Source of the DNA: a virus
Taxonomy: Duplodnaviria; Heunggongvirae; Uroviricota; Caudoviricetes
Direction: 5' to 3' (one strand)
IMG/VR virus record: IMGVR_UViG_2617270953_000002
Length of the DNA stretch: 8,455 nucleotides
Position numbers and translations under genes: made by a program. Of the stretch, positions 1 through 8,455 are shown in pieces. The notes beneath the pieces are model-generated. The model was not told where the DNA came from and made no database searches. It saw nothing but the letters and a program-made list of their open reading frames with translations. The stretch's first letter is position 1. Each line of letters begins with the position of its first letter.

Positions 1-329
1 CGCTGTGGCGGCGTAAGAGGCCCCGGAACGTTATCGTTCACACGGACCGTGGAGGCCAGTACTGTTCAGCAGATTATCAGGCGCAACTGAAGCGGCATAA
101 TCTGCGTGGAAGTATGAGCGCAAAAGGTTGCTGCTACGATAATGCCTGCGTGGAAAGCTTCTTTCATTCGCTGAAAGTGGAATGTATCCATGGAGAACAC
201 TTTATCAGCCGGGAAATAATGCGGGCAACGGTGTTTAATTATATCGAATGTGATTACAATCGGTGGCGGCGGCACAGTTGGTGTGGCGGCCTCAGTCCGG
301 AACAATTTGAAAACAAGAACCTCGCTTAG
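1..329 (+). CDS. IS3-family transposase OrfB (DDE catalytic subunit), C-terminal fragment; 5' end lies outside the window
   Basis: Reading from nt 3 gives ...[54 protein letters not shown]...YNRWRRHS...[11 protein letters not shown], ending at TAG 327-329. The HTDRGxQY, CxDNA..ESFF..LK and YNR.RRHS motifs are the typical C-terminus of IS3-family DDE transposases; the tail resembles IS600. Recognised from memory. Confidence 0.85.
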
Positions 330-359
330 GCCTGTGTCCATATTACGTGGGTAGGATCA
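330..359. repeat. IS right terminal inverted repeat (IRR), ends with CA at nt 359
   Basis: Sequence gcctgtgtccatattacgtgggtaggatca directly follows the transposase stop and has the TG...CA termini and TGGACAC core typical of IS3-group IRs. The exact boundary is inferred, not confirmed against the left end. Confidence 0.6.
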
Positions 360-1551
360 TATGGCCCATAATCTGCGCAACAATACCTGTTGGTACTTCG
401 ACCCATTCAGCGAGGGTCCCAAAACTACGGCGCAATCCGTGCAAGCTGATATGTGGTAACTCCGCGCGAGTTAATGCTCTATTATGTGCTGAACGCGGTT
501 CAATAATTTTGCCACTTTTGCTGTTACTTCTGAAAACCCAATTCTCCTCGTTTGTACCACGATTGGGGATCTCCATCAGTGAGCGTAACAAGTCAGAAAC
601 ATAGGGAGTGAGGGGGATAATTCGCTCGCCTTCGATCTTGTCTTTAATTCTCATGCTTGACCATTTGAAATCTATGTCAGACCAGCGAAGTGAGGAAATT
701 TCTTCACGCCGTGCACCGGTGAGCAAAAGCACTTGGAGATAGGCTGATGCAATGGGATTATTGAGGCTACGCACGGCACTGAACCAGCTTTTGAGCTGTT
801 CTTTTTGTAAGCAATCTCCCGCTTTGCTCGCTGATATTGGAACCATTTTTCTCACGTTATGATCTTGTGCAAGATCGCCATCGATTATTCCCTGATATTT
901 TTTCTGGTAATTAGCCCATTTGATGAATGCACGCAACAGACGGTAGGCATGAGCAGTGACGGTAGGCCGATTTTGTCTCTCTGTACTTAGCCATTCGGCA
1001 ATGTTCTCTGGTGTTAGTTCTGATAATGGTCGGTCGAGCAGGCTAGCCAGTGGCCCAGGTGAGGTTGGGCCCCGGCCTCTTTTTTTACTTTCGCCTCCAC
1101 GACTGGACAAGTTAACGTGATCGGCAATGTAGCGTGCAGAGTAGGGGCGTTTAGTTTTTGCGCTGATTCCGGTTCTCAATTCATCAAGATAATCTTCCCA
1201 AGCGCTTGAAAAGGTTGCCTTCGTTTTACGAGATTCAGCCTGCTGTGATTCCGCTTCAGCAATTTTTTCCGCCTTAGCTATACGCGGATCTATCCCAGTA
1301 TCGATTAATGTTTGCAGTCGCCTGGCTTCGGCCCTCGCATCATCAATCCTCCAATCGTTAATGTTGCCAATGGTCATGCGAAGGGTTTTTCCCGCATACA
1401 GGCTTTGGAATACAAAGGCTTTTGCTCCACGAGTTGCTCGACATGCCAAGCTTGTTACGTCCGTATCCCAAAGGAAAACTTGGTTTTTCCCTTCAGGTAA
1501 AGTAAATCTTCGAATTCGTTCGAAGGTTAGTTTTTGTCTTGAAAGCGCCAT
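343..1551 (-). pseudogene. int: Tyrosine recombinase (phage/island integrase), C-terminally truncated by the IS; the last five codons and stop come from IS sequence
   Basis: 402-aa ORF with ATG at 1551 and AGGAA about 9 nt upstream. It has box I (LLLTGARREEISSLRWSDID) and box II (LHGLRRSFGTLAEW...AQIMGH), but the ORF stops 5 codons after the GH, with the junction at nt 359/360 inside the Met codon. The catalytic Tyr expected about 10 residues later is absent. Confidence 0.75.
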
Positions 1552-1734
1552 TTTTAGGGTTCCTGTTGGGGATTACGGTTTACAGTAATGTAACGGCTGG
1601 TGTAAGTAAATTGAAAGGATAAACATCAACACTCATCAATTTACATCAACAGGTTTTTTGTTTTAATATTATGATTTAAAATGATAAATTTGTGATTTCT
1701 GATGGTTGTTCAAGCAGTTAAAATATAAAAACTT

Positions 1735-1783
1735 CGCATTCGTAATGCGAAGGTCGTAGGTTCGACTCCTATTATCGGCACCA
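1735..1783 (+). other. 3' fragment (about 49 nt) of tRNA-Thr(CGU), thrW-like: anticodon arm, variable loop, T-arm, acceptor 3' strand and CCA. An att core/direct repeat, not a complete tRNA gene
   Basis: cgcattcgtaatgcgaaggtcgtaggttcgactcctattatcggcacca: anticodon loop TTCGTAA (anticodon CGT), T-stem GTAGG/CCTAT, T-loop TTCGACT, acceptor TATCGGC + A + CCA. The preceding bases (aaaatataaaaactt) carry no D-arm or 5' acceptor strand. The 5' boundary is approximate (1733-1737). Confidence 0.8.
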
Positions 1784-1797
1784 TTTAAATCAATAAG

Positions 1798-2958
1798 TTA
1801 CCTCGCATTTAAGTAAACTACGTTCTCCTCTTGTGCCGTATTTGTGCCATTGCGATTTATAATCGCATCGATTTTGCTCGCGTGCTCGGTGAGATGCCCG
1901 GCTGAAAGGTGGGCGTATCTTTGAACCATTTCGAGAGTTTCCCATCCTCCCATCTCTTTAAGCGCAAGAAGAGAGACACCGGACTGAACCAGCCAGCTTG
2001 CCCAGGTATGCCTCAGGTCATGGAAGCGGAAGTTGCTAATGCCTGCCCGCTTTAACGCTCCCTTCCATGCCTTGTTGCTGTCGGTTCTCATCTTCCTTAC
2101 CGCTGCTGTTTTTGTTCCGTCGCTTCGGTAGGCAGGTTTGGTGTGGACAAATACCCATCTCTTATGGAGCCCCTGCTGTTTTCTTAATATCTGGCATGCG
2201 GTTTCGTTAAGAGGAACTCCGATCGCATTGCCAGCTTTTGTTTCATCAGGGTGCATCCATGCCATTTTCTTATCCAGATCGACCTGTGACCACTCAAGGT
2301 CTGTAACGTTGGAACGGCGAAGGCCTGTCGTGATTGCAAACATGACCACAGGGAAGAAATGAGGAGCAATTTCTGCAAACAGGCGCTTCGATTCCTCCTC
2401 TGTAAGCCATCTGATTCGTCCATTCTTAACGCGTGGTGTTGATATTTTGGGCGTCCTGTCAAGCCATCCCCATTCAACAGCCATATTGAGAATAGCGCGA
2501 AGTATTGCCAGATGCCGCGTCTTCGTTCCTTTGCTTGCCAGCTTTGGTTTATACTCCGGCACTGGCTTGCCAAGCCGCAAACACCTGTCCCGGCTCATCT
2601 CCCAGTTCAGGCGATGGCGGCGGTTTTCCATCCCGTCTACCGCCTCCATTATTTTTTCTGTTGTTATGTCAGAGAGAATGGTTTCTCTGAAGTGCAACAT
2701 CCAGAACGATATAATGCTCTTGTCATCATCAATGGACTTCTTATCCGATTTCTCACGCAGCCACCGTATGCAGGCTTCCTTGAATAGCTTTTTCGGTGAT
2801 TCCCCGAGATTTTTTACTCTCCACGCTTCTGCTTTCAGACGATCGTGAAGTTCTTGCGCTTGCCTTTTGTCCGATGTTTCAAGAGAGCGTCTAACTCTTG
2901 ATCCATCTGGCGCGACGAAATCACAGTGCCACGTGCCACCGCGTAGTTTGATTGACAT
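1798..2958 (-). CDS. int: P22-type lambdoid tyrosine integrase, apparently intact
   Basis: 386-aa ORF with ATG at 2958 and AGGAGG 8 nt upstream. N-terminus MSIKLRGGTWHCDF...SDKRQAQELHDRLKAEAWRV and C-terminus FRFHDLRHTWASWLVQSGV...EMGGWETLEMVQRYAHL closely match the phage P22 Int pattern (recalled from memory). The stop lies 14 nt from the tRNA-Thr fragment, as expected for int next to attL. Confidence 0.9.
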   Translation of the reverse strand: MSIKLRGGTWHCDFVAPDGSRVRRSLETSDKRQAQELHDRLKAEAWRVKNLGESPKKLFKEACIRWLREKSDKKSIDDDKSIISFWMLHFRETILSDITTEKIMEAVDGMENRRHRLNWEMSRDRCLRLGKPVPEYKPKLASKGTKTRHLAILRAILNMAVEWGWLDRTPKISTPRVKNGRIRWLTEEESKRLFAEIAPHFFPVVMFAITTGLRRSNVTDLEWSQVDLDKKMAWMHPDETKAGNAIGVPLNETACQILRKQQGLHKRWVFVHTKPAYRSDGTKTAAVRKMRTDSNKAWKGALKRAGISNFRFHDLRHTWASWLVQSGVSLLALKEMGGWETLEMVQRYAHLSAGHLTEHASKIDAIINRNGTNTAQEENVVYLNAR

Positions 2959-3182
2959 GCTTTAACCTCCTGCACATCAACCGCATTCACCGCGCTATTG
3001 TGTCTCACAGACTTAAGCGCCGCAATGCAGTCTGACTTGCAAATGCGATATGGACTTTTAGGTTTATCTGGATTTATCTTTGCGGCCTGAAGTCGTCCAC
3101 TTCGTATCCACTGCGTGATAGTGCCTTTGTCTACCTTCAGATACGATGCTGCCTCTTCACGAGTGAAGATTTCTTCTTCCAC
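2835..3182 (-). CDS. xis: Excisionase (Xis/AlpA-type HTH DNA-binding protein), 115 aa, GTG start
   Basis: N-terminal IFTREEAASYLKVDKGTITQWIRSGRLQAAKI is a typical excisionase helix-turn-helix. It sits immediately upstream of int and overlaps it by 124 nt in another frame. GTG at 3182 is preceded by GGAGA. The length is consistent with P22 Xis being unusually long (about 116 aa, from memory). Confidence 0.65.
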   Translation of the reverse strand: MEEEIFTREEAASYLKVDKGTITQWIRSGRLQAAKINPDKPKSPYRICKSDCIAALKSVRHNSAVNAVDVQEVKACQSNYAVARGTVISSRQMDQELDALLKHRTKGKRKNFTIV

Positions 3183-3267: not shown

Positions 3268-3612
3268 TTAGTCCTTGCGTAGCTCGCTGATTCTTCTGTA
3301 AGTCTCTGGTGCTTTGTTCCCGTACGTCTTCATTTCAGACTTCAACAGAGCAACGAGTGAATCCCATTCGTTGAGGATTCCTTTGAATGCCGGAACGCGC
3401 TTTGCAACCTTGTCGAATGAATCTCTGATTTCTGGAATCTGCTCAACAAGTGCAACGCATCGTCGGAAATCTGCTGCGTCATGTGGAGCGCCGAAGTGAT
3501 GACCATAGATATTCTTTTTCAGTCCACATGCGATTGAGGCAATAGTTGCGCTACTGATGCCGACATCGCCAGTCGATTGCCATTTCAAAACCTTCATAGC
3601 CAAATCTGACAT
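3268..3612 (-). CDS. Hypothetical prophage accessory protein, 114 aa
   Basis: ORF-track ORF 3268..3639 trimmed to the internal ATG at 3612, which is preceded by GGAGA with about 7 nt spacing. The longer N-terminal extension would run through the terminator hairpin. No family recognised. Confidence 0.6.
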   Translation of the reverse strand: MSDLAMKVLKWQSTGDVGISSATIASIACGLKKNIYGHHFGAPHDAADFRRCVALVEQIPEIRDSFDKVAKRVPAFKGILNEWDSLVALLKSEMKTYGNKAPETYRRISELRKD

Positions 3613-3623
3613 TTCTTGTCTCC

Positions 3624-3648
3624 AATAAAAAACCGCCATCAGGCGGCT
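3624..3648 (-). terminator. Putative intrinsic (rho-independent) terminator on the minus strand
   Basis: Minus strand reads AGCCGCC-tgat-GGCGGTT followed by TTTTTTTATT: a 5-7 bp GC stem, 4-nt loop and U-run, 65-90 nt downstream of the stop of the 3713..3892 gene. The stem is short, so strength is uncertain. Confidence 0.45.
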
Positions 3649-3712
3649 TGGTGTTCTTTCAGTTCTTCAATTCGAATATTGGTTACATTGTTTTCATATA
3701 TGAATAAATAAA

Positions 3713-3892
3713 TTAGCTTTTTTCGTTGCCTTCGCTTTCTTTATTAATTTTGACAAACTCGTTTTTACCACGCTCTCCAAATGCGTCTTTAGAGTCGTTG
3801 TATCCGCAATCGCAGCACACATAATCATCAGACCATCCACGCATTGTTTTTTCTTTTGCAATATTTCCAGAACCGCATTTTGGACAAGACAT
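3713..3892 (-). CDS. Small zinc-ribbon protein (CPxCG ... CCDCG), 59 aa, moron-like
   Basis: ORF 3713..3925 trimmed to the ATG at 3892, which is preceded by GGAGGT about 8 nt upstream. Product MSCPKCGSGN...YVCCDCGYND has two Cys pairs spaced for a zinc ribbon. The locus is strongly AT-rich. Confidence 0.6.
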   Translation of the reverse strand: MSCPKCGSGNIAKEKTMRGWSDDYVCCDCGYNDSKDAFGERGKNEFVKINKESEGNEKS

Positions 3893-3988
3893 ATCACTAC
3901 CTCCAAAGCATGAGTGAGATGACAACGTAACATTGATTGGAGATTAACAATAGATTGCTGATGTAAAAGATATGTATAAGCTTCGCTT

Positions 3989-4627
3989 TCAAAGTGGAGG
4001 CTCTGGTAGCGGCATCCAGTGTGACGGCTCACATACCCCCTCAACACCATTCATGTAAAAGAATTGAAATAACCCATTACCTTTGTGAAACCCTACCATC
4101 TGCTCTTTAGTGTCTGAGCAATAAACCAAAACATCTTCTTCGTTTGGCATTCGATCACTACAGCTTATCCAACCATCAGGAGTTACCGGAGAGTTGCCAC
4201 CGGGAATATTTTCCGGAATATTTTGTTGTGCGTTTTGTGGTTGTTCGGATTTACCCTGAAGCATGGCGGCGCGGCAGGCGTTCCAGCCAGCTGTTCGCCC
4301 AAGCGCGTAAACTTCAGATGGCTCAAGATAATCAATGTCATGCCCATCCTCATCGTCGTTCTCAGGTAATGCAGCAGGTACTACCGGTACTGGCGGAGCG
4401 GCGTAGACTTCAATAATCCCATTATCAATAGGCCATTCCCCATCCTTGATGTAGTCACTTGTGCCGTCAACTTGCTGTTCTGCAATGTGGAATGCGCCAA
4501 TAGGCTCTGCTTCCAGCGATGCCAGTGCGATTTCATAAGCCCGACGCTCAATATTGTCTCGGACGTCCAGGCTGCCTATACGCTCTTTGATTTCTTTAAT
4601 CAGTTCTTTGTCGGTGAACGTTGTCAT
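3989..4627 (-). CDS. DUF551-domain prophage protein with an N-terminal helical domain and Pro-rich/acidic linker, 212 aa
   Basis: ATG at 4627 with AAGGA about 8 nt upstream. The C-terminal segment PDGWISCSDRMPNEEDVLVYC...GVCEPSHWMPLPEPP matches the DUF551 signature common in lambdoid 'ea' regions (from memory). The central linker is AAPPVPVVPAALPENDDEDGHDIDY. Confidence 0.75.
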   Translation of the reverse strand: MTTFTDKELIKEIKERIGSLDVRDNIERRAYEIALASLEAEPIGAFHIAEQQVDGTSDYIKDGEWPIDNGIIEVYAAPPVPVVPAALPENDDEDGHDIDYLEPSEVYALGRTAGWNACRAAMLQGKSEQPQNAQQNIPENIPGGNSPVTPDGWISCSDRMPNEEDVLVYCSDTKEQMVGFHKGNGLFQFFYMNGVEGVCEPSHWMPLPEPPL

Positions 4628-4637
4628 GTGTTAGTCC

Positions 4638-4901
4638 TTATCCTGCTGTGCTTTCAACTGATGAGGGGAATAAAATCTTTTCATCAAATCCGGCATTCAT
4701 ATCATGGACAGCAACACACCAATCCACCGACGAACGATTATCAAGAGCCTCCATGATTTCATCCATGCGGCGTAGGTCATAAAGGTAAATGCTTTTATCG
4801 CCAATGGTGTAAAAACCAATTTTTTTCGGTGATGGACAGCGATCAAGAACGTCCTGTAATTCGCTCAACCATGCTTGTTCTTTTTTTGTCAAAGTTGCCA
4901 T
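4638..4901 (-). CDS. Hypothetical prophage protein, 87 aa
   Basis: ATG at 4901 preceded by AAAGGAGA 6-7 nt upstream; the start lies 1 nt after the TGA of the upstream gene. No family recognised. Confidence 0.65.
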   Translation of the reverse strand: MATLTKKEQAWLSELQDVLDRCPSPKKIGFYTIGDKSIYLYDLRRMDEIMEALDNRSSVDWCVAVHDMNAGFDEKILFPSSVESTAG

Positions 4902-4902
4902 A

Positions 4903-5394
4903 TCACTCTCCTTTGATGCGAATGCCAGTGGTACTCATTCTCCTGATTTCCCAGAGCACACGAGGAACACCACCGTTTCCGACCGGATCGCGCTTACTCC
5001 GCATGGCGACGCTTGATTCCGCCCAGCTTTTTCTTGGAGGAAGCTCTTTCACACGAACAAAACCAGCTGCGCGAAGAGATGCTCCTGATTCATCTGCCTG
5101 GGTGTACGTAATACAACGTTGATAACCCATAGCCTTTGCTGCCCGCCAGACAGCACCATAAAGCGCGCTGTTAGCGTTGCGTTCTCCTGTGGTACATGTG
5201 CGATTTACTTCAAGCGTTAATCCATCGTCCAAATGTCGTGCAACAGGTCGACCAGCTGTCGCCACACCTATCAATTCTCCGGCATTATTTCTCAGACCAA
5301 TGCTGAATTTATGCCCCACTGGTGGTTTATTGTGTCGGTGGTGCTGTGCGATAAATTCCTGCGCCGCTTTCAGCGTTATAGGTGAAATGACCAT
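4903..5394 (-). CDS. Conserved prophage protein, 163 aa; possibly an acyl-CoA N-acyltransferase (GNAT-like) fold, assignment unverified
   Basis: ATG at 5394 overlaps the TGA of the upstream gene (TGATG), with AAGGAGGAG about 9 nt upstream. The ORF-track GTG at 5397 is one codon further upstream. Sequence shows HHRHNKPPVGHKF...LIGVATAGRPVARHLDDGLTLEVNRT...SALYGAVWRAAKAMGYQRCITYTQADESGASLRAAGF. The fold call is pattern intuition only. Confidence 0.7.
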   Translation of the reverse strand: MVISPITLKAAQEFIAQHHRHNKPPVGHKFSIGLRNNAGELIGVATAGRPVARHLDDGLTLEVNRTCTTGERNANSALYGAVWRAAKAMGYQRCITYTQADESGASLRAAGFVRVKELPPRKSWAESSVAMRSKRDPVGNGGVPRVLWEIRRMSTTGIRIKGE

Positions 5395-5873
5395 CACTCA
5401 GACTCCTCCTTGATGCCAGCGGCGCGGGAATCATTCCATCGCTTTACTTCTTCACTAATTACGTCAATGCATTCTTTCGAATCCATTAGGTAATCTTCAT
5501 CAAAAAGACGTTCCTGTTCGTTTTCTATCGCAACAATGATTGCTTCAACTAATTTTTGTGCCTGAGAATCACTTTCTAACTCTGCAATGCGCTTACTCCC
5601 ATCCGAGATAACACCTTCGTAATACTCACGCTGCTCGTTGAGTTTTGATTTTGTCTCCTCAAGCTCAACACGCAGCTTCCCTACCGTTAGCGCAATATCC
5701 TCGTTCTCCTGGTCGCGGCGTTTGATGTATTGCTGGTTTCTTTCCCGTTCATCCAGTAGTGCCAGCACAACCTGAGGTGTGACCTTCATACGAAATGCCA
5801 GCAATTTTTGTGGTGTGGCTGCTATTTTTATTGCTTCTGCCGCATCACGCAGTGCCTGATAGTCAATTGTCAT
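5394..5873 (-). CDS. Ead/Ea22-like early protein (coiled-coil), 159 aa
   Basis: N-terminus [22 protein letters not shown] matches the Ead/Ea22-like family start found in P22/lambda-type early regions (from memory); the centre is a charged coiled-coil-like segment. ATG at 5873 overlaps the upstream TGA (ATGA), with GAAGGA about 8 nt upstream. The ORF track starts 3 codons earlier. Confidence 0.7.
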   Translation of the reverse strand: MTIDYQALRDAAEAIKIAATPQKLLAFRMKVTPQVVLALLDERERNQQYIKRRDQENEDIALTVGKLRVELEETKSKLNEQREYYEGVISDGSKRIAELESDSQAQKLVEAIIVAIENEQERLFDEDYLMDSKECIDVISEEVKRWNDSRAAGIKEESE

Positions 5874-6514
5874 TCTCGCCATCCTTCACAGTTGTAATCA
5901 CTACAGCCTTCAAAATCATATGGGCTGTACTGCCAGGAGATTTTTCCGCAATGCGGACAATTCCAACGCACCTTCCCGCTTCGCGACTTCTTTCTTCTGT
6001 TCTGCTCTTTCAACCAGTCAGGCATGACCAAACCTGCGCCCTGAACCATTGTTCTGCGGTTAAAGTTATTGATATTGAACGTCCTGCGCTTTGCTGCATC
6101 AGCAATGGAAAATGGCAACCAAACTATTCCTGGTTCGTTTTTGTTGGCGACGCTAAAGATGGTCGCTTTACTGAAGTCATCTGTTGGCAATCCACCGTGT
6201 TGAAGCCAGTAAACATCGTTGCCGTTCCAGCTACCTTTTTTGTAGGCCACATACGCAGTGCAATCTGACTCAATCAGGCTTTCTGTAGGGATGTACTGGC
6301 AATCAACGTGCCACACTGCCATTGCATCCACGCTATCAGCGCAAACAGGCTGATCGATATCTCGCCCACAATTCCAGGCTTTTTGGGCTTCTTCCAGCGT
6401 GTAAACATGAGCGCGATCGATATCAGAACTGTAACCATTGCCGTTATGGCAATGGAATGAAGCGTTATTGCCCACAGTTTCACGCGAGCACATCATGTAA
6501 AAACGGTTAGTCAC
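5870..6514 (-). CDS. Hypothetical Cys/His-rich prophage protein, 214 aa, with a C-terminal zinc-ribbon-like motif
   Basis: Probable GTG start at 6514 overlapping the upstream TGA (GTGA), with strong AAGGAGG 6 nt upstream. The ORF-track start at 6535 is also GTG but lacks an SD. N-terminal [10 protein letters not shown]; C-terminal [11 protein letters not shown]...CSDYNCEGW. No family recognised. Confidence 0.7.
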
Positions 6515-6678
6515 TGGCTGCCTCCTTTGCGCCACATCGCATTCAGATATTTGTTTTCATTCACTGATGGAAAAGAATTTCTCTTAAGTAATTCCTCTCT
6601 CGATGGCATTGGCTTTACGCGTTGGCGAATAATCATTTCTGCCGGAAGAATGCCGGGATTGTATGCAAGTCCTCTCAT
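6511..6678 (-). CDS. Small hypothetical protein, 55 aa, translationally coupled to neighbours
   Basis: ATG at 6678 preceded by GAGGAA (about 7 nt spacing) which overlaps the TGA of the 6689..6982 gene. Its own TGA overlaps the GTG of the next gene. The ORF-track version (105 aa) has an N-terminal extension overlapping the upstream gene. Confidence 0.5.
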
Positions 6679-6688
6679 GGTAAATTCC

Positions 6689-6982
6689 TCAGTCATTACT
6701 GATAGCGCCATAACGTGAGCGGTAATTACGCAGGCGCGGGTCAATTTCAGGGAAGTGGGTATATGTGGCTTTGCGGAATGGTCGGATTGATGTCTGGTAA
6801 ATTCGCTCGCGTTCTTCTTTCTCTGCAAGCCATATACAGTGGCGAAATTCCTTTTCCTCTTTCGTTTCCTGCGGTAGAGACATTATCCGGTCGTAGTTTT
6901 TTCTGAATTTATCCAGCACCTCCGATACGGAATTGCCGGAACAGCGGCGCACGTCGTCCGCACCATACAGAGGCGCTGGCAT
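6689..6982 (-). CDS. Hypothetical prophage protein, 97 aa
   Basis: ATG at 6982 with AAGGA about 9 nt upstream, 23 nt after the SSB stop. No family recognised. Confidence 0.65.
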
Positions 6983-7005
6983 AATTAAATCCTTATTGTT
7001 CTAAA

Positions 7006-7389
7006 TCAGAATGGGATGGAATCGTCGTATACAGGAGTGTTCTGCTGGTTACTACTTTGCCGCTGCGGGCCATTTCCTGAAGCTGCAAATCCAATCTTTG
7101 CATTCAGTAATTCAAGAGTGATTGATTGACCATTTTGCCCCTGATAAACATCAACCCTGATGTTTTCTCCGGTAATTTCCACAATTCCACCTTCAACAAG
7201 AACACTACGGTAGTAATCCGCTTGCGCTCCCGGCTTGGCAAATACAACGGCGCTGTAGTTTATCCATTCTTTCTTTTTTGTCTGGCGATCGTAATACTGA
7301 ACGCCAGCACGGATGTTGAATCCGATATTTTCCCCGGCCTGAAACTCTCTTGCGGGCTTGTTTAGTCTTACAGTAATCGAATGTGCCAT
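7006..7389 (-). CDS. ssb: Phage single-stranded DNA-binding protein (compact OB fold with acidic SSB-type C-terminal tip), 127 aa
   Basis: ATG at 7387-7389 overlaps the erf TAA (TAATG). The C-terminus ...NTPVYDDSIPF matches the conserved DDDIPF tip of bacterial SSB. The body (ITVRL...EWINYSAVVFAK...VLVEGGIVEITGENIRVDVYQGQNGQSITLELLNAKI) resembles OB-fold strands. The ORF track's 30-aa N-terminal extension would overlap erf. Confidence 0.7.
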   Translation of the reverse strand: MAHSITVRLNKPAREFQAGENIGFNIRAGVQYYDRQTKKKEWINYSAVVFAKPGAQADYYRSVLVEGGIVEITGENIRVDVYQGQNGQSITLELLNAKIGFAASGNGPQRQSSNQQNTPVYDDSIPF

Positions 7390-7994
7390 TAAGCAGCCGC
7401 TCCTTCTAATTCGTCTCGTCTGATGTTGTAAACGTCCTGCGCTTTGTGCTGCTCCGGTGTGCCTTCGAGCATCTTCCACGCTTTGGCGAACGCCTGTTTA
7501 AGCTCTTCCACGGTGTTTTTCTGCATTGCTGCGTCAGTGAATGCTTTTAGAACCTGTTCAGGTGTAGGTGATGGTTTTGATTGCTTTGCTGCTGCGTTCT
7601 GCTGATGTTTATGCTCGTCTGTATCTGCATCTTTCGCATCATCAATGCCGAACAAACCATTAAGGCAATACTTGCGCGCATAAGAGCTTGTAGCTCCAGT
7701 AACTTGTGCAGAATCCATTCCTTTCTTGCTTTCTTCCTCTCTTGCGAGAGCGGTTGCCGTATGACTGTTTTCGCCATCGGTAATAGTTGCCGTGGCTTTC
7801 ACGTAATACCGATCACCAATCAACACAACTTCATCGCTGATTGATAAAAACAGGCCATTCAGTAACGGCTTAACGCCTTCAAGAATGTCTTCGCAGCTTC
7901 TGTATTTATATTTACCGAATGAGTTGTACTGATTCTTTGGCGCGTTCAGATTCTCCTGAATAGCTGCCAGTCTTGCATAAAATTCTTTGCTCAT
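7389..7994 (-). CDS. erf: Erf-family single-strand annealing recombinase (essential recombination function), 201 aa
   Basis: From the ATG at 7994 the product begins MSKEFYARLAAIQENLNAPKNQYNSFGKYKYRSCEDILEGVKPLL...GDRYYVKATATITDGENSH...GATSSYARKYCLNGLFGIDDAKDA, matching phage P22 Erf through the N-terminal annealing domain (from memory). The C-terminal third seems divergent. Confidence 0.9.
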   Translation of the reverse strand: MSKEFYARLAAIQENLNAPKNQYNSFGKYKYRSCEDILEGVKPLLNGLFLSISDEVVLIGDRYYVKATATITDGENSHTATALAREEESKKGMDSAQVTGATSSYARKYCLNGLFGIDDAKDADTDEHKHQQNAAAKQSKPSPTPEQVLKAFTDAAMQKNTVEELKQAFAKAWKMLEGTPEQHKAQDVYNIRRDELEGAAA

Positions 7995-8095
7995 ATGATT
8001 GTTCTCAGAATGGACACGGCCCAAGGAAATAACGCTGATTTAATACTTCTACTCGGGACAAATTAAGGCATACCCGCATTCCTTCGCGGTCGCCA

Positions 8096-8254
8096 TTATG
8101 GCGATACCAGAGAGCTTTCTGCGTGTACATGCGTCTCTGTAACTTGCTCTCCTTCACTGTGGTTGCAAGTGACATGAATATCTCCTTCGTTACCGATTAA
8201 ATCTTTCATCTGACGAATGAATTCTTCGTCTGACCAGTTATCTGTAAAACTCAT
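8096..8254 (-). CDS. Small acidic/His-containing hypothetical protein, 52 aa, in the position occupied by kil in P22/lambda
   Basis: ATG at 8254 overlaps the TGA of the cIII-like gene (ATGA). Product MSFTDNWSDEEFIRQMKDLIGNEGDIHVTCNHSEGEQVTETHVHAESSLVSP. The functional call is positional only. Confidence 0.5.
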   Translation of the reverse strand: MSFTDNWSDEEFIRQMKDLIGNEGDIHVTCNHSEGEQVTETHVHAESSLVSP

Positions 8255-8421
8255 GGGCGGCCTTGTTGTTTCAAAATATCCCAAAGCTTTTCGAGCAAAC
8301 TTTTCATTCTTGGTTGTTTAAAGTCTGCTCCGGTTAGAATGTTTTTTCGTGAATGCTGTACCGATAAAATCGGGTTGAAAGGGCGAACCGATGCCGCCCC
8401 TGCAATAGCGAACTGTTGCAT
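8251..8421 (-). CDS. cIII: cIII-like small regulatory protein (candidate FtsH inhibitor), 56 aa; below the ORF-track size cutoff
   Basis: Hand translation of the minus strand gives ATG (8421) to TGA (8251): MQQFAIAGAASVRPFNPILSVQHSRKNILTGADFKQPRMKSLLEKLWDILKQQGRP, with strong GAAGGAG about 7 nt upstream. N-terminal MQ.FAIAG and C-terminal LL..L.DIL.Q.G.P resemble lambda CIII (MQYAIAG...RLIDILNQPGVP, from memory). The position upstream of kil/erf fits lambdoid order. Confidence 0.55.
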   Translation of the reverse strand: MQQFAIAGAASVRPFNPILSVQHSRKNILTGADFKQPRMKSLLEKLWDILKQQGRP

Positions 8422-8455
8422 AGGATGCTCCTTCTGTTTGATTGCATAACGAAAA

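Follow-up and report, generated by a model that had tools for sequence, protein, structure and literature searches.

Our analysis indicated that a complete IS3 element very probably transposed into codon 398 of an IntF-type integrase gene. The gene belongs to a CP4-6-like island at thrW that carries scrKYABR, and the island is expected to have lost self-excision and integration as a result. The window analyzed here, the whole stretch of 8455 nt, is the entire contig JNQE01000008.1 of the E. coli draft assembly GCA_000704105.1, read in reverse. It starts inside IS3. The following features are located in it.

1..359, + strand: the 3' part of IS3, 359 nt, an exact match to a 1258-bp IS3 joined from two contigs of a sister assembly.
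3..329, + strand: the last 108 codons of the IS3 transposase gene orfB, whose stop codon is at 327-329; Pfam rve_2 (1.9e-21), rve_3 and rve.
321..359, no strand: the right terminal inverted repeat (IRR) of IS3, ending ...GGTAGGATCA at 359.
343..1551, - strand: the truncated IntF-type tyrosine integrase ORF, 402 aa, from the ORF list and Pfam.
360..362, no strand: the right-hand copy of the target-site duplication, TAT; TAT is also found at the left junction in the same assembly.
1552..1734, no strand: the region upstream of the integrase gene (int), up to the thrW remnant; presumed int promoter and island-side att arm, by analogy with ptwF-intF of K-12.
1735..1783, + strand: a 3' remnant of the tRNA-Thr gene thrW (ptwF-like), 49 nt; it serves both as the island's distal att repeat and as the site at which the adjacent prophage is attached.
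1798..2958, - strand: the intact prophage integrase, 386 aa; PF00589 profile positions 2-170 of 172, E = 9e-35, with HDLRH...W...RYAHL.
2835..3182, - strand: an excisionase-like HTH_17 (PF12728) gene of the prophage; the mEp213 homologue is annotated as similar to SfX excisionase.

Window 1-359 corresponds to nt 900-1258 of a 1258-bp copy of IS3, and differs at two positions from the annotated IS3 copy of VREC0864. The last 14 of these nucleotides (346-359), ACGTGGGTAGGATCA, are the canonical right terminus of IS3. The element is full length, at 1258 bp, and the two junction contigs of GCA_000713275.1 overlap by 1241 nt. Its left repeat (IRL) and IRR, 39 nt each, match at 28 of 39 positions, and both start with TGATC. 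In a related contig the element encodes ORFs of 99 aa (HTH_Tnp_1) and 288 aa (HTH_21, rve, rve_3 and rve_2). Gene calls on related contigs give the full transposase either as 387 aa or as 288+99 aa, and RefSeq notes a 'programmed frameshift' in an IS3 copy with 1-3 mismatches to the copy of the window's lineage. The element therefore has every characteristic expected of IS3: a length of about 1258 bp with imperfect TG...CA inverted repeats, overlapping orfA and orfB joined through a programmed -1 frameshift, and a 3-bp duplication. IS3 itself is present in 5233 of 5426 E. coli genomes searched with megablast. The preliminary description had placed the end of the right repeat at nt 359, within the last Met codon of the integrase ORF, and this is correct to the base. 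The end falls inside that codon (358-360) because only nt 360 of it is native.

The interrupted gene encodes a product of 402 aa, and an AGGA motif is located 9 nt upstream of its ATG. Residues 1-397 are native (window 361-1551), Met398 is encoded by the hybrid codon 358-360, and the ILPT tail and the stop come from the IS3 IRR (343-357). The product reads ...LHGLRRSF...AQIMGH-MILPT*. Pfam assigned Arm-DNA-bind_3 (PF13356) to residues 24-95 and Phage_integrase (PF00589) to residues 248-397. Positions 3-156 of the 172-position PF00589 profile are covered, compared to coverage up to position 167 in the intact 439-aa allele. R281/R282, K305, H371, R374 and H397 are retained, and these residues are invariant in a 13-sequence alignment. 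However, the nucleophilic Tyr of a tyrosine recombinase, located about 9-10 residues after the last His, is missing, and no Tyr is found downstream of residue 371. The gene is a member of the tyrosine recombinases by descent, and judged from its sequence the predicted product is not a complete enzyme.

The uninterrupted form of the gene is found in other E. coli strains. Megablast against 5426 complete E. coli genomes gave matches with 99.7-100% identity that start exactly at nt 360 and end at 1784-1800. The matched loci are those of ECONIH4, CAVP776, AW1.7, MS6192 and others, and none of the 5426 genomes carries the IS3 junction at nt 359/360. The uninterrupted minus-strand integrase is 439 aa, ...AQIMGH-KPSALAEKHYRRRPLDLL..., and in ECONIH4 the frame goes on past box II as ...AQIMGH KPSALAEKHYRRRPLDLLRKWHEKVELWILEEAKIKNNVDKR*. 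The intact allele contains ...GHKPSALAEKHYRRRP..., in which Y407 aligns to the nucleophile.

A database search found thousands of homologues, and those with near-full query coverage are typically 430-466 aa. We aligned 12 intact homologues of 432-621 aa and 44-99% identity, from Escherichia, Salmonella, Pectobacterium, Yersinia, Aeromonas, Aquitalea, Paraburkholderia and others. All 12 extend past the GH of box II, following the pattern (K/T/A)(P/A)(S/Q)...E(K/Q)(H/N)Y.RRP.(D/E).LR.WH, and in each the Tyr aligns to Y407 of the 439-aa allele. A PDB sequence search with the integrase returned one weak, partial match (E = 0.0014), and the Tyr was assigned from the homologue alignment and Pfam coordinates. 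The preliminary description had read ORF 343..1551 as passing through box II (HGLRRSF...AQIMGH) into MILPT and a stop, without the nucleophilic Tyr, and had called for an alignment to intact homologues. The ORF and the alignment bear out both the breakpoint and the missing Tyr, which all 12 intact homologues possess; none of them ends at this position, and no catalytic Tyr lies inside the ORF. The Tyr motif had been given as the R.YAH type, and here a correction is needed, as the motif of the island integrase family is EKHYRRRP.

The 439-aa form is annotated as intact by NCBI elsewhere and is widespread, with 242 contigs in Cronobacter and 35 in E. coli. In ECONIH4 (locus L001, 3873-5267) and MS6192 (locus L011, 19873-21267), the uninterrupted allele is flagged by PGAP as a pseudogene ('internal stop'). 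The flagged stop sits in a 25-codon extension upstream of the conserved Met, which was modeled on relatives of 457-466 aa. This extension is missing from Yersinia, Aeromonas and more distant homologues, all of which start at the Met of MA..RQKLT. Since the stop lies in an upstream extension that distant homologues do not have, the flag on the 439-aa allele is probably an artefact of start-site modeling.

Contigs carrying the 402-aa gene all break inside IS3. The left junction was built in silico for duplications of 0-6 bp, and the predicted junction ORFs were looked up by exact sequence. The ORF predicted with a 3-bp duplication and a TTG start exists in GenBank: MLGKINKPSALAEKHYRRRPLDLLRKWHEKVELWILEEAKIKNNVDKR, KDX36403.1 and KEM81828.1. 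The other nine of the ten predicted junction peptides, which include partial-gene forms and 4-bp duplication forms, are absent from GenBank. The left junction is located on contig JNQE01000161.1 of the window's own assembly, and on JORR01000155.1 of GCA_000713275.1. With a slash at the junction, it reads ...GGCTTAT/TGATCTTACCC, and in longer form ...GAGCGCTAGGCTTAT/TGATCTTACCCAGC...; the window side reads ...GGTAGGATCA/TATGGCCCAT. When IS3 and one TAT were removed in silico, the resulting sequence was identical to the ECONIH4 locus at 1400 of 1400 nt. This match to the empty site indicates a simple transposition, with no deletion or rearrangement. The IS left end and the displaced int 3' end, which the preliminary description had suggested looking for together with a 3-4 bp duplication, are thus located on JNQE01000161.1, and the duplication is the 3-bp TAT.

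The displaced int 3' end, together with a TTG start in the IS3 left repeat, forms an ORF annotated as a 48-aa 'putative phage integrase protein' (JNQE01000161.1, 370-516; JORR01000155.1, 1236-1382). This ORF is a by-product of the IS3 insertion. Both int fragments carry a 'phage integrase' annotation in GenBank.

The right junction recurs in four NCBI assemblies, two ENA metagenome scaffolds and several Logan contigs, and the matching left junction with the same TAT is found in two assemblies. Among the JGI metagenome contigs scanned, neither the predicted left junction nor the right junction was found, and the right junction was also not found in the GTDB species-representative genomes scanned. 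The junction-bearing lineage is simply absent from these collections. A separate case is found in VREC0864 (locus L002, 3877-6463), where an independent IS3 insertion with an ATC duplication interrupts a related thrW-island integrase, with two IS5-family transposase genes nearby. IS insertions in the thrW-island integrase gene therefore recur.

The structure of the island can be seen in MS6192. There, the uninterrupted gene is located at the far end of a 42.7-kb island, which extends from thrW to the thrW remnant adjacent to int. The island starts at an intact tRNA-Thr gene thrW beside proA. Its opening module, ykfI, ykfH, ykfG, yafX and ykfF, is typical of K-12 CP4-6. It carries scrK, scrY, scrA, scrB and scrR, with an AlpA-like HTH gene, the integrase and the thrW remnant at its end. 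A 10.1-kb stretch of contig JNQE01000161.1, which takes in the HTH_17 and scr genes, matches the MS6192 island with 99.98% identity. The scr genes of the disrupted island constitute a complete sucrose regulon, scrK/scrY/scrA/scrB/scrR (JNQE01000161.1, 5201-10516; locus L011 of MS6192, 8640-15188). The accessions of the scr proteins are common to Citrobacter-type proteins, and the 439-aa integrase is also common in Cronobacter sakazakii. This sharing suggests that the island has spread between genera.

Several features relate the integrase to IntF of CP4-6. It has an N-terminal Arm-DNA-bind_3 (DUF4102) domain and a catalytic domain. It is divergent from the thrW remnant beside it (remnant at 1735-1783 on the + strand, int start at 1551 on the - strand), and the end of the island with the full thrW was read in MS6192. 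In addition, window 362-1800 is 82.8% identical at the nucleotide level to the intF region in K-12 derivatives. Compared to the full thrW of MS6192, the remnant is identical from 1735 to the CCA at 1783 and at the next base as well, and comprises the 3' two-thirds of thrW. A complete thrW inside the window was considered and rejected, since ARAGORN finds no complete tRNA in the window. The mEp213 record labels the equivalent of the remnant 'prophage attachment site (type CP4-6)'. A promoter scan upstream of int gave two weak sigma-70-like matches on the minus strand, no more than expected by chance. The thrW locus as a whole is a tandem array, in which the remnant that closes the CP4-6-like island (window 1735-1783) doubles as the site at which the next element is attached. 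Downstream of thrW in MS6192, three elements that carry an integrase are found in succession (locus L014, 26903-26978; locus L011, 21400-21424).

The element next to the island in the window is a lambdoid prophage. At 1161 nt, its integrase gene matches in length that of mEp213, a viable phage, with 96.8% identity across the region. Across the int-xis-abc2-erf region, identities to mEp213, mEp043, HK542 and HK446 are 96.8-97.3%. The neighboring int had previously been described as intact and P22-like. It is indeed intact, with 386 aa and Pfam coverage of 2-170 of 172 positions, but the neighbor is a lambdoid prophage of the mEp213/HK542 type and not P22. The prophage xis-like ORF (2835..3182) overlaps the int 5' end by 124 nt (2835-2958), an arrangement shared with mEp213. 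The early-left region (window 3268-8455) is mosaic, and contains Erf, a 127-aa ORF, the anti-RecBCD protein Abc2, DUF2737, Ead/Ea22-like, DUF551 and Lar-like genes. The closest phages cover only about 50-55% of this region. No family could be assigned to several early-left ORFs, for example 4903..5397 and 5870..6535. In a BLASTP comparison, the island and prophage integrases are about 29% identical over 142 residues, and the alignment extends only up to box II.

The neighbor of the disrupted island is not always the same. In GCA_903972055.1, the lambdoid prophage next to the same IS3::int allele is another one, and its integrase of 387 aa shares about 80% identity with that of the ECONIH4 neighbor (locus L003, 8591-9754). 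In one metagenome scaffold, it is located beside a third flank (locus L008, 1-31). These differing neighbors suggest that the insertion predates at least some of the neighbor turnover. Indirectly, the sequence data are consistent with the island being an older, decaying element.

Several other explanations of these observations were weighed. The 402-aa protein could be a naturally short integrase that is still competent, with a native end at this position or another Tyr serving as the nucleophile. The truncated protein does still reach 62 bits in Pfam, which is above the threshold. However, its last five codons are IS3 terminal-repeat sequence, the intact homologues are all at least 432 aa and possess the Tyr, and the missing 3' end is found on the other side of the IS. 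Junction reconstruction and alignment together refute this explanation, and the probability we leave to it is negligible. Equally little weight can be given to an assembly artefact, in which a chimeric contig was formed at a repeat. The contig does end inside a multicopy IS. Against this stand the identical right junction in the NCBI assemblies, ENA scaffolds and Logan contigs listed above, the matching left junctions with TAT, and the 1241-nt contig overlap across the IS. The junction is not an artefact of assembly because it recurs in independent data sets. It is also quite unlikely that the integrase was already dead before IS3 came, so that the insertion was without functional consequence. 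CP4-6 of K-12 and related thrW islands are generally regarded as cryptic, and the PGAP pseudogene label on the uninterrupted allele of ECONIH4 and MS6192 points in the same direction. But the stop behind that label lies in the extension that the Yersinia, Aeromonas and distant homologues lack, all active-site residues are conserved, and the 439-aa form is widespread and annotated as intact.

The remaining explanations accept the insertion and concern what the island or the truncated protein may still do. The C-terminal segment mediates protomer contacts in tyrosine recombinases such as lambda Int and Cre, and this segment is missing from the 402-aa product. Arm-DNA-bind_3 and most of the catalytic and core-binding regions are kept, and the allele persists in several strains. 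The truncated protein could therefore be imagined to keep a non-catalytic role, in which it would bind arm and core sites by the thrW remnant, repress its own promoter and perhaps occupy the shared att. The analogy comes from K-12, which has the same divergent layout of ptwF and intF; there, IntF was shown to repress PintF, the promoter of its own gene, about 23-fold (Panis et al., 2010; PMC2951348). Persistence of the allele is equally expected for a neutral pseudogene, however, and we consider such a role doubtful. A more elaborate form of this proposal seems very improbable to us. In it, the Tyr-less integrase would be made, bind DNA at a hybrid thrW att, repress its own promoter and, by occupying the shared core, alter excision of the prophage; or else the insertion would have been selected for locking the sucrose island. 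We also regard it as very unlikely that the island is still mobile through another integrase acting in trans, either that of the adjacent prophage or a paralogue elsewhere. Island and prophage have an identical thrW core of 49-50 bp, and the mEp213 att is annotated as 'type CP4-6', both of which would favor such an exchange. However, the low identity of the two integrases, and the presence of Arm-DNA-bind_3 only in that of the island, make shared recognition of arm sites unlikely.

We thus favor inactivation of a previously intact island integrase by IS3. The 1258-bp element entered int by a simple cut-and-paste or copy-in event, which generated the 3-bp TAT duplication and left the flanks intact. 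As a result, int is split into the 402-aa ORF and an orphan 3' fragment that codes for the final 42 residues. The displaced 3' end, which contains the Tyr codon, has been kept at a distance of 1.26 kb. The predicted 402-aa product contains the arm-binding and core-binding regions and most of the catalytic domain, and lacks the equivalent of Y407 and the later C-terminal helices. Tyrosine recombinases cleave DNA via a covalent 3'-phosphotyrosine. With the Tyr lost, the 402-aa protein is therefore not expected to catalyze strand exchange. The island would no longer excise or integrate via its own integrase, and was presumably immobilized by the IS3 insertion. Its AlpA-like HTH gene, the scr cargo and both 49-50-bp thrW repeats would remain. 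This would hold the island in the chromosome, barring its loss through homologous recombination between the thrW repeats. The adjacent lambdoid prophage keeps its full-length integrase and excisionase, and should be unaffected.

The insertion explains why these drafts have a 402-aa and a 48-aa 'phage integrase' ORF on different contigs, and the IS3 copy links two contigs of the assembly. It also marks a small E. coli lineage (GEMS-type isolates) whose thrW scr island has probably lost self-mobility. In addition, the locus shows thrW occupied by an island and then a prophage in tandem. The significance extends little beyond annotation. Integrase genes of cryptic islands are commonly disrupted by an IS. 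IS3, the intact IntF-type allele and both annotated fragments are already in public databases, and integrase decay by IS is of an ordinary, already known kind.

Among the closest known systems is IntF of the cryptic prophage CP4-6 of K-12. IntF likewise combines Arm-DNA-bind_3 and PF00589, and in both cases the gene diverges from a 3' remnant of thrW that marks the far end of the island. Unlike intF, the allele in the window is broken at codon 398 and has no nucleophilic Tyr, and the cargo of its island is scrKYABR and other genes instead of that of CP4-6. The inserted element is simply E. coli IS3 (IS3 family, IS3 group) in a new position, with no material difference: both have 1258 bp, imperfect 39-nt TGATC...GATCA repeats, orfA/orfB with HTH and rve domains, and a 3-bp duplication. 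The adjacent prophage, which is not part of the disrupted element, resembles mEp213, mEp043, HK542 and HK446. These phages have thrW-site integrases, and the mEp213 att is annotated as the thrW/ptwF (CP4-6) type. However, phages of the mEp213/HK542 type cover only about 50-55% of the window segment, owing to the usual mosaicism of the early-left genes. Finally, the window resembles the IS-disrupted integrases of other decaying islands and cryptic prophages, in which the loss of the recombinase to an IS likewise leaves the element fixed in the chromosome. Compared to these, the insertion in the window is located very near the 3' end of the gene, so that a nearly full-length, Tyr-less protein could still be made.
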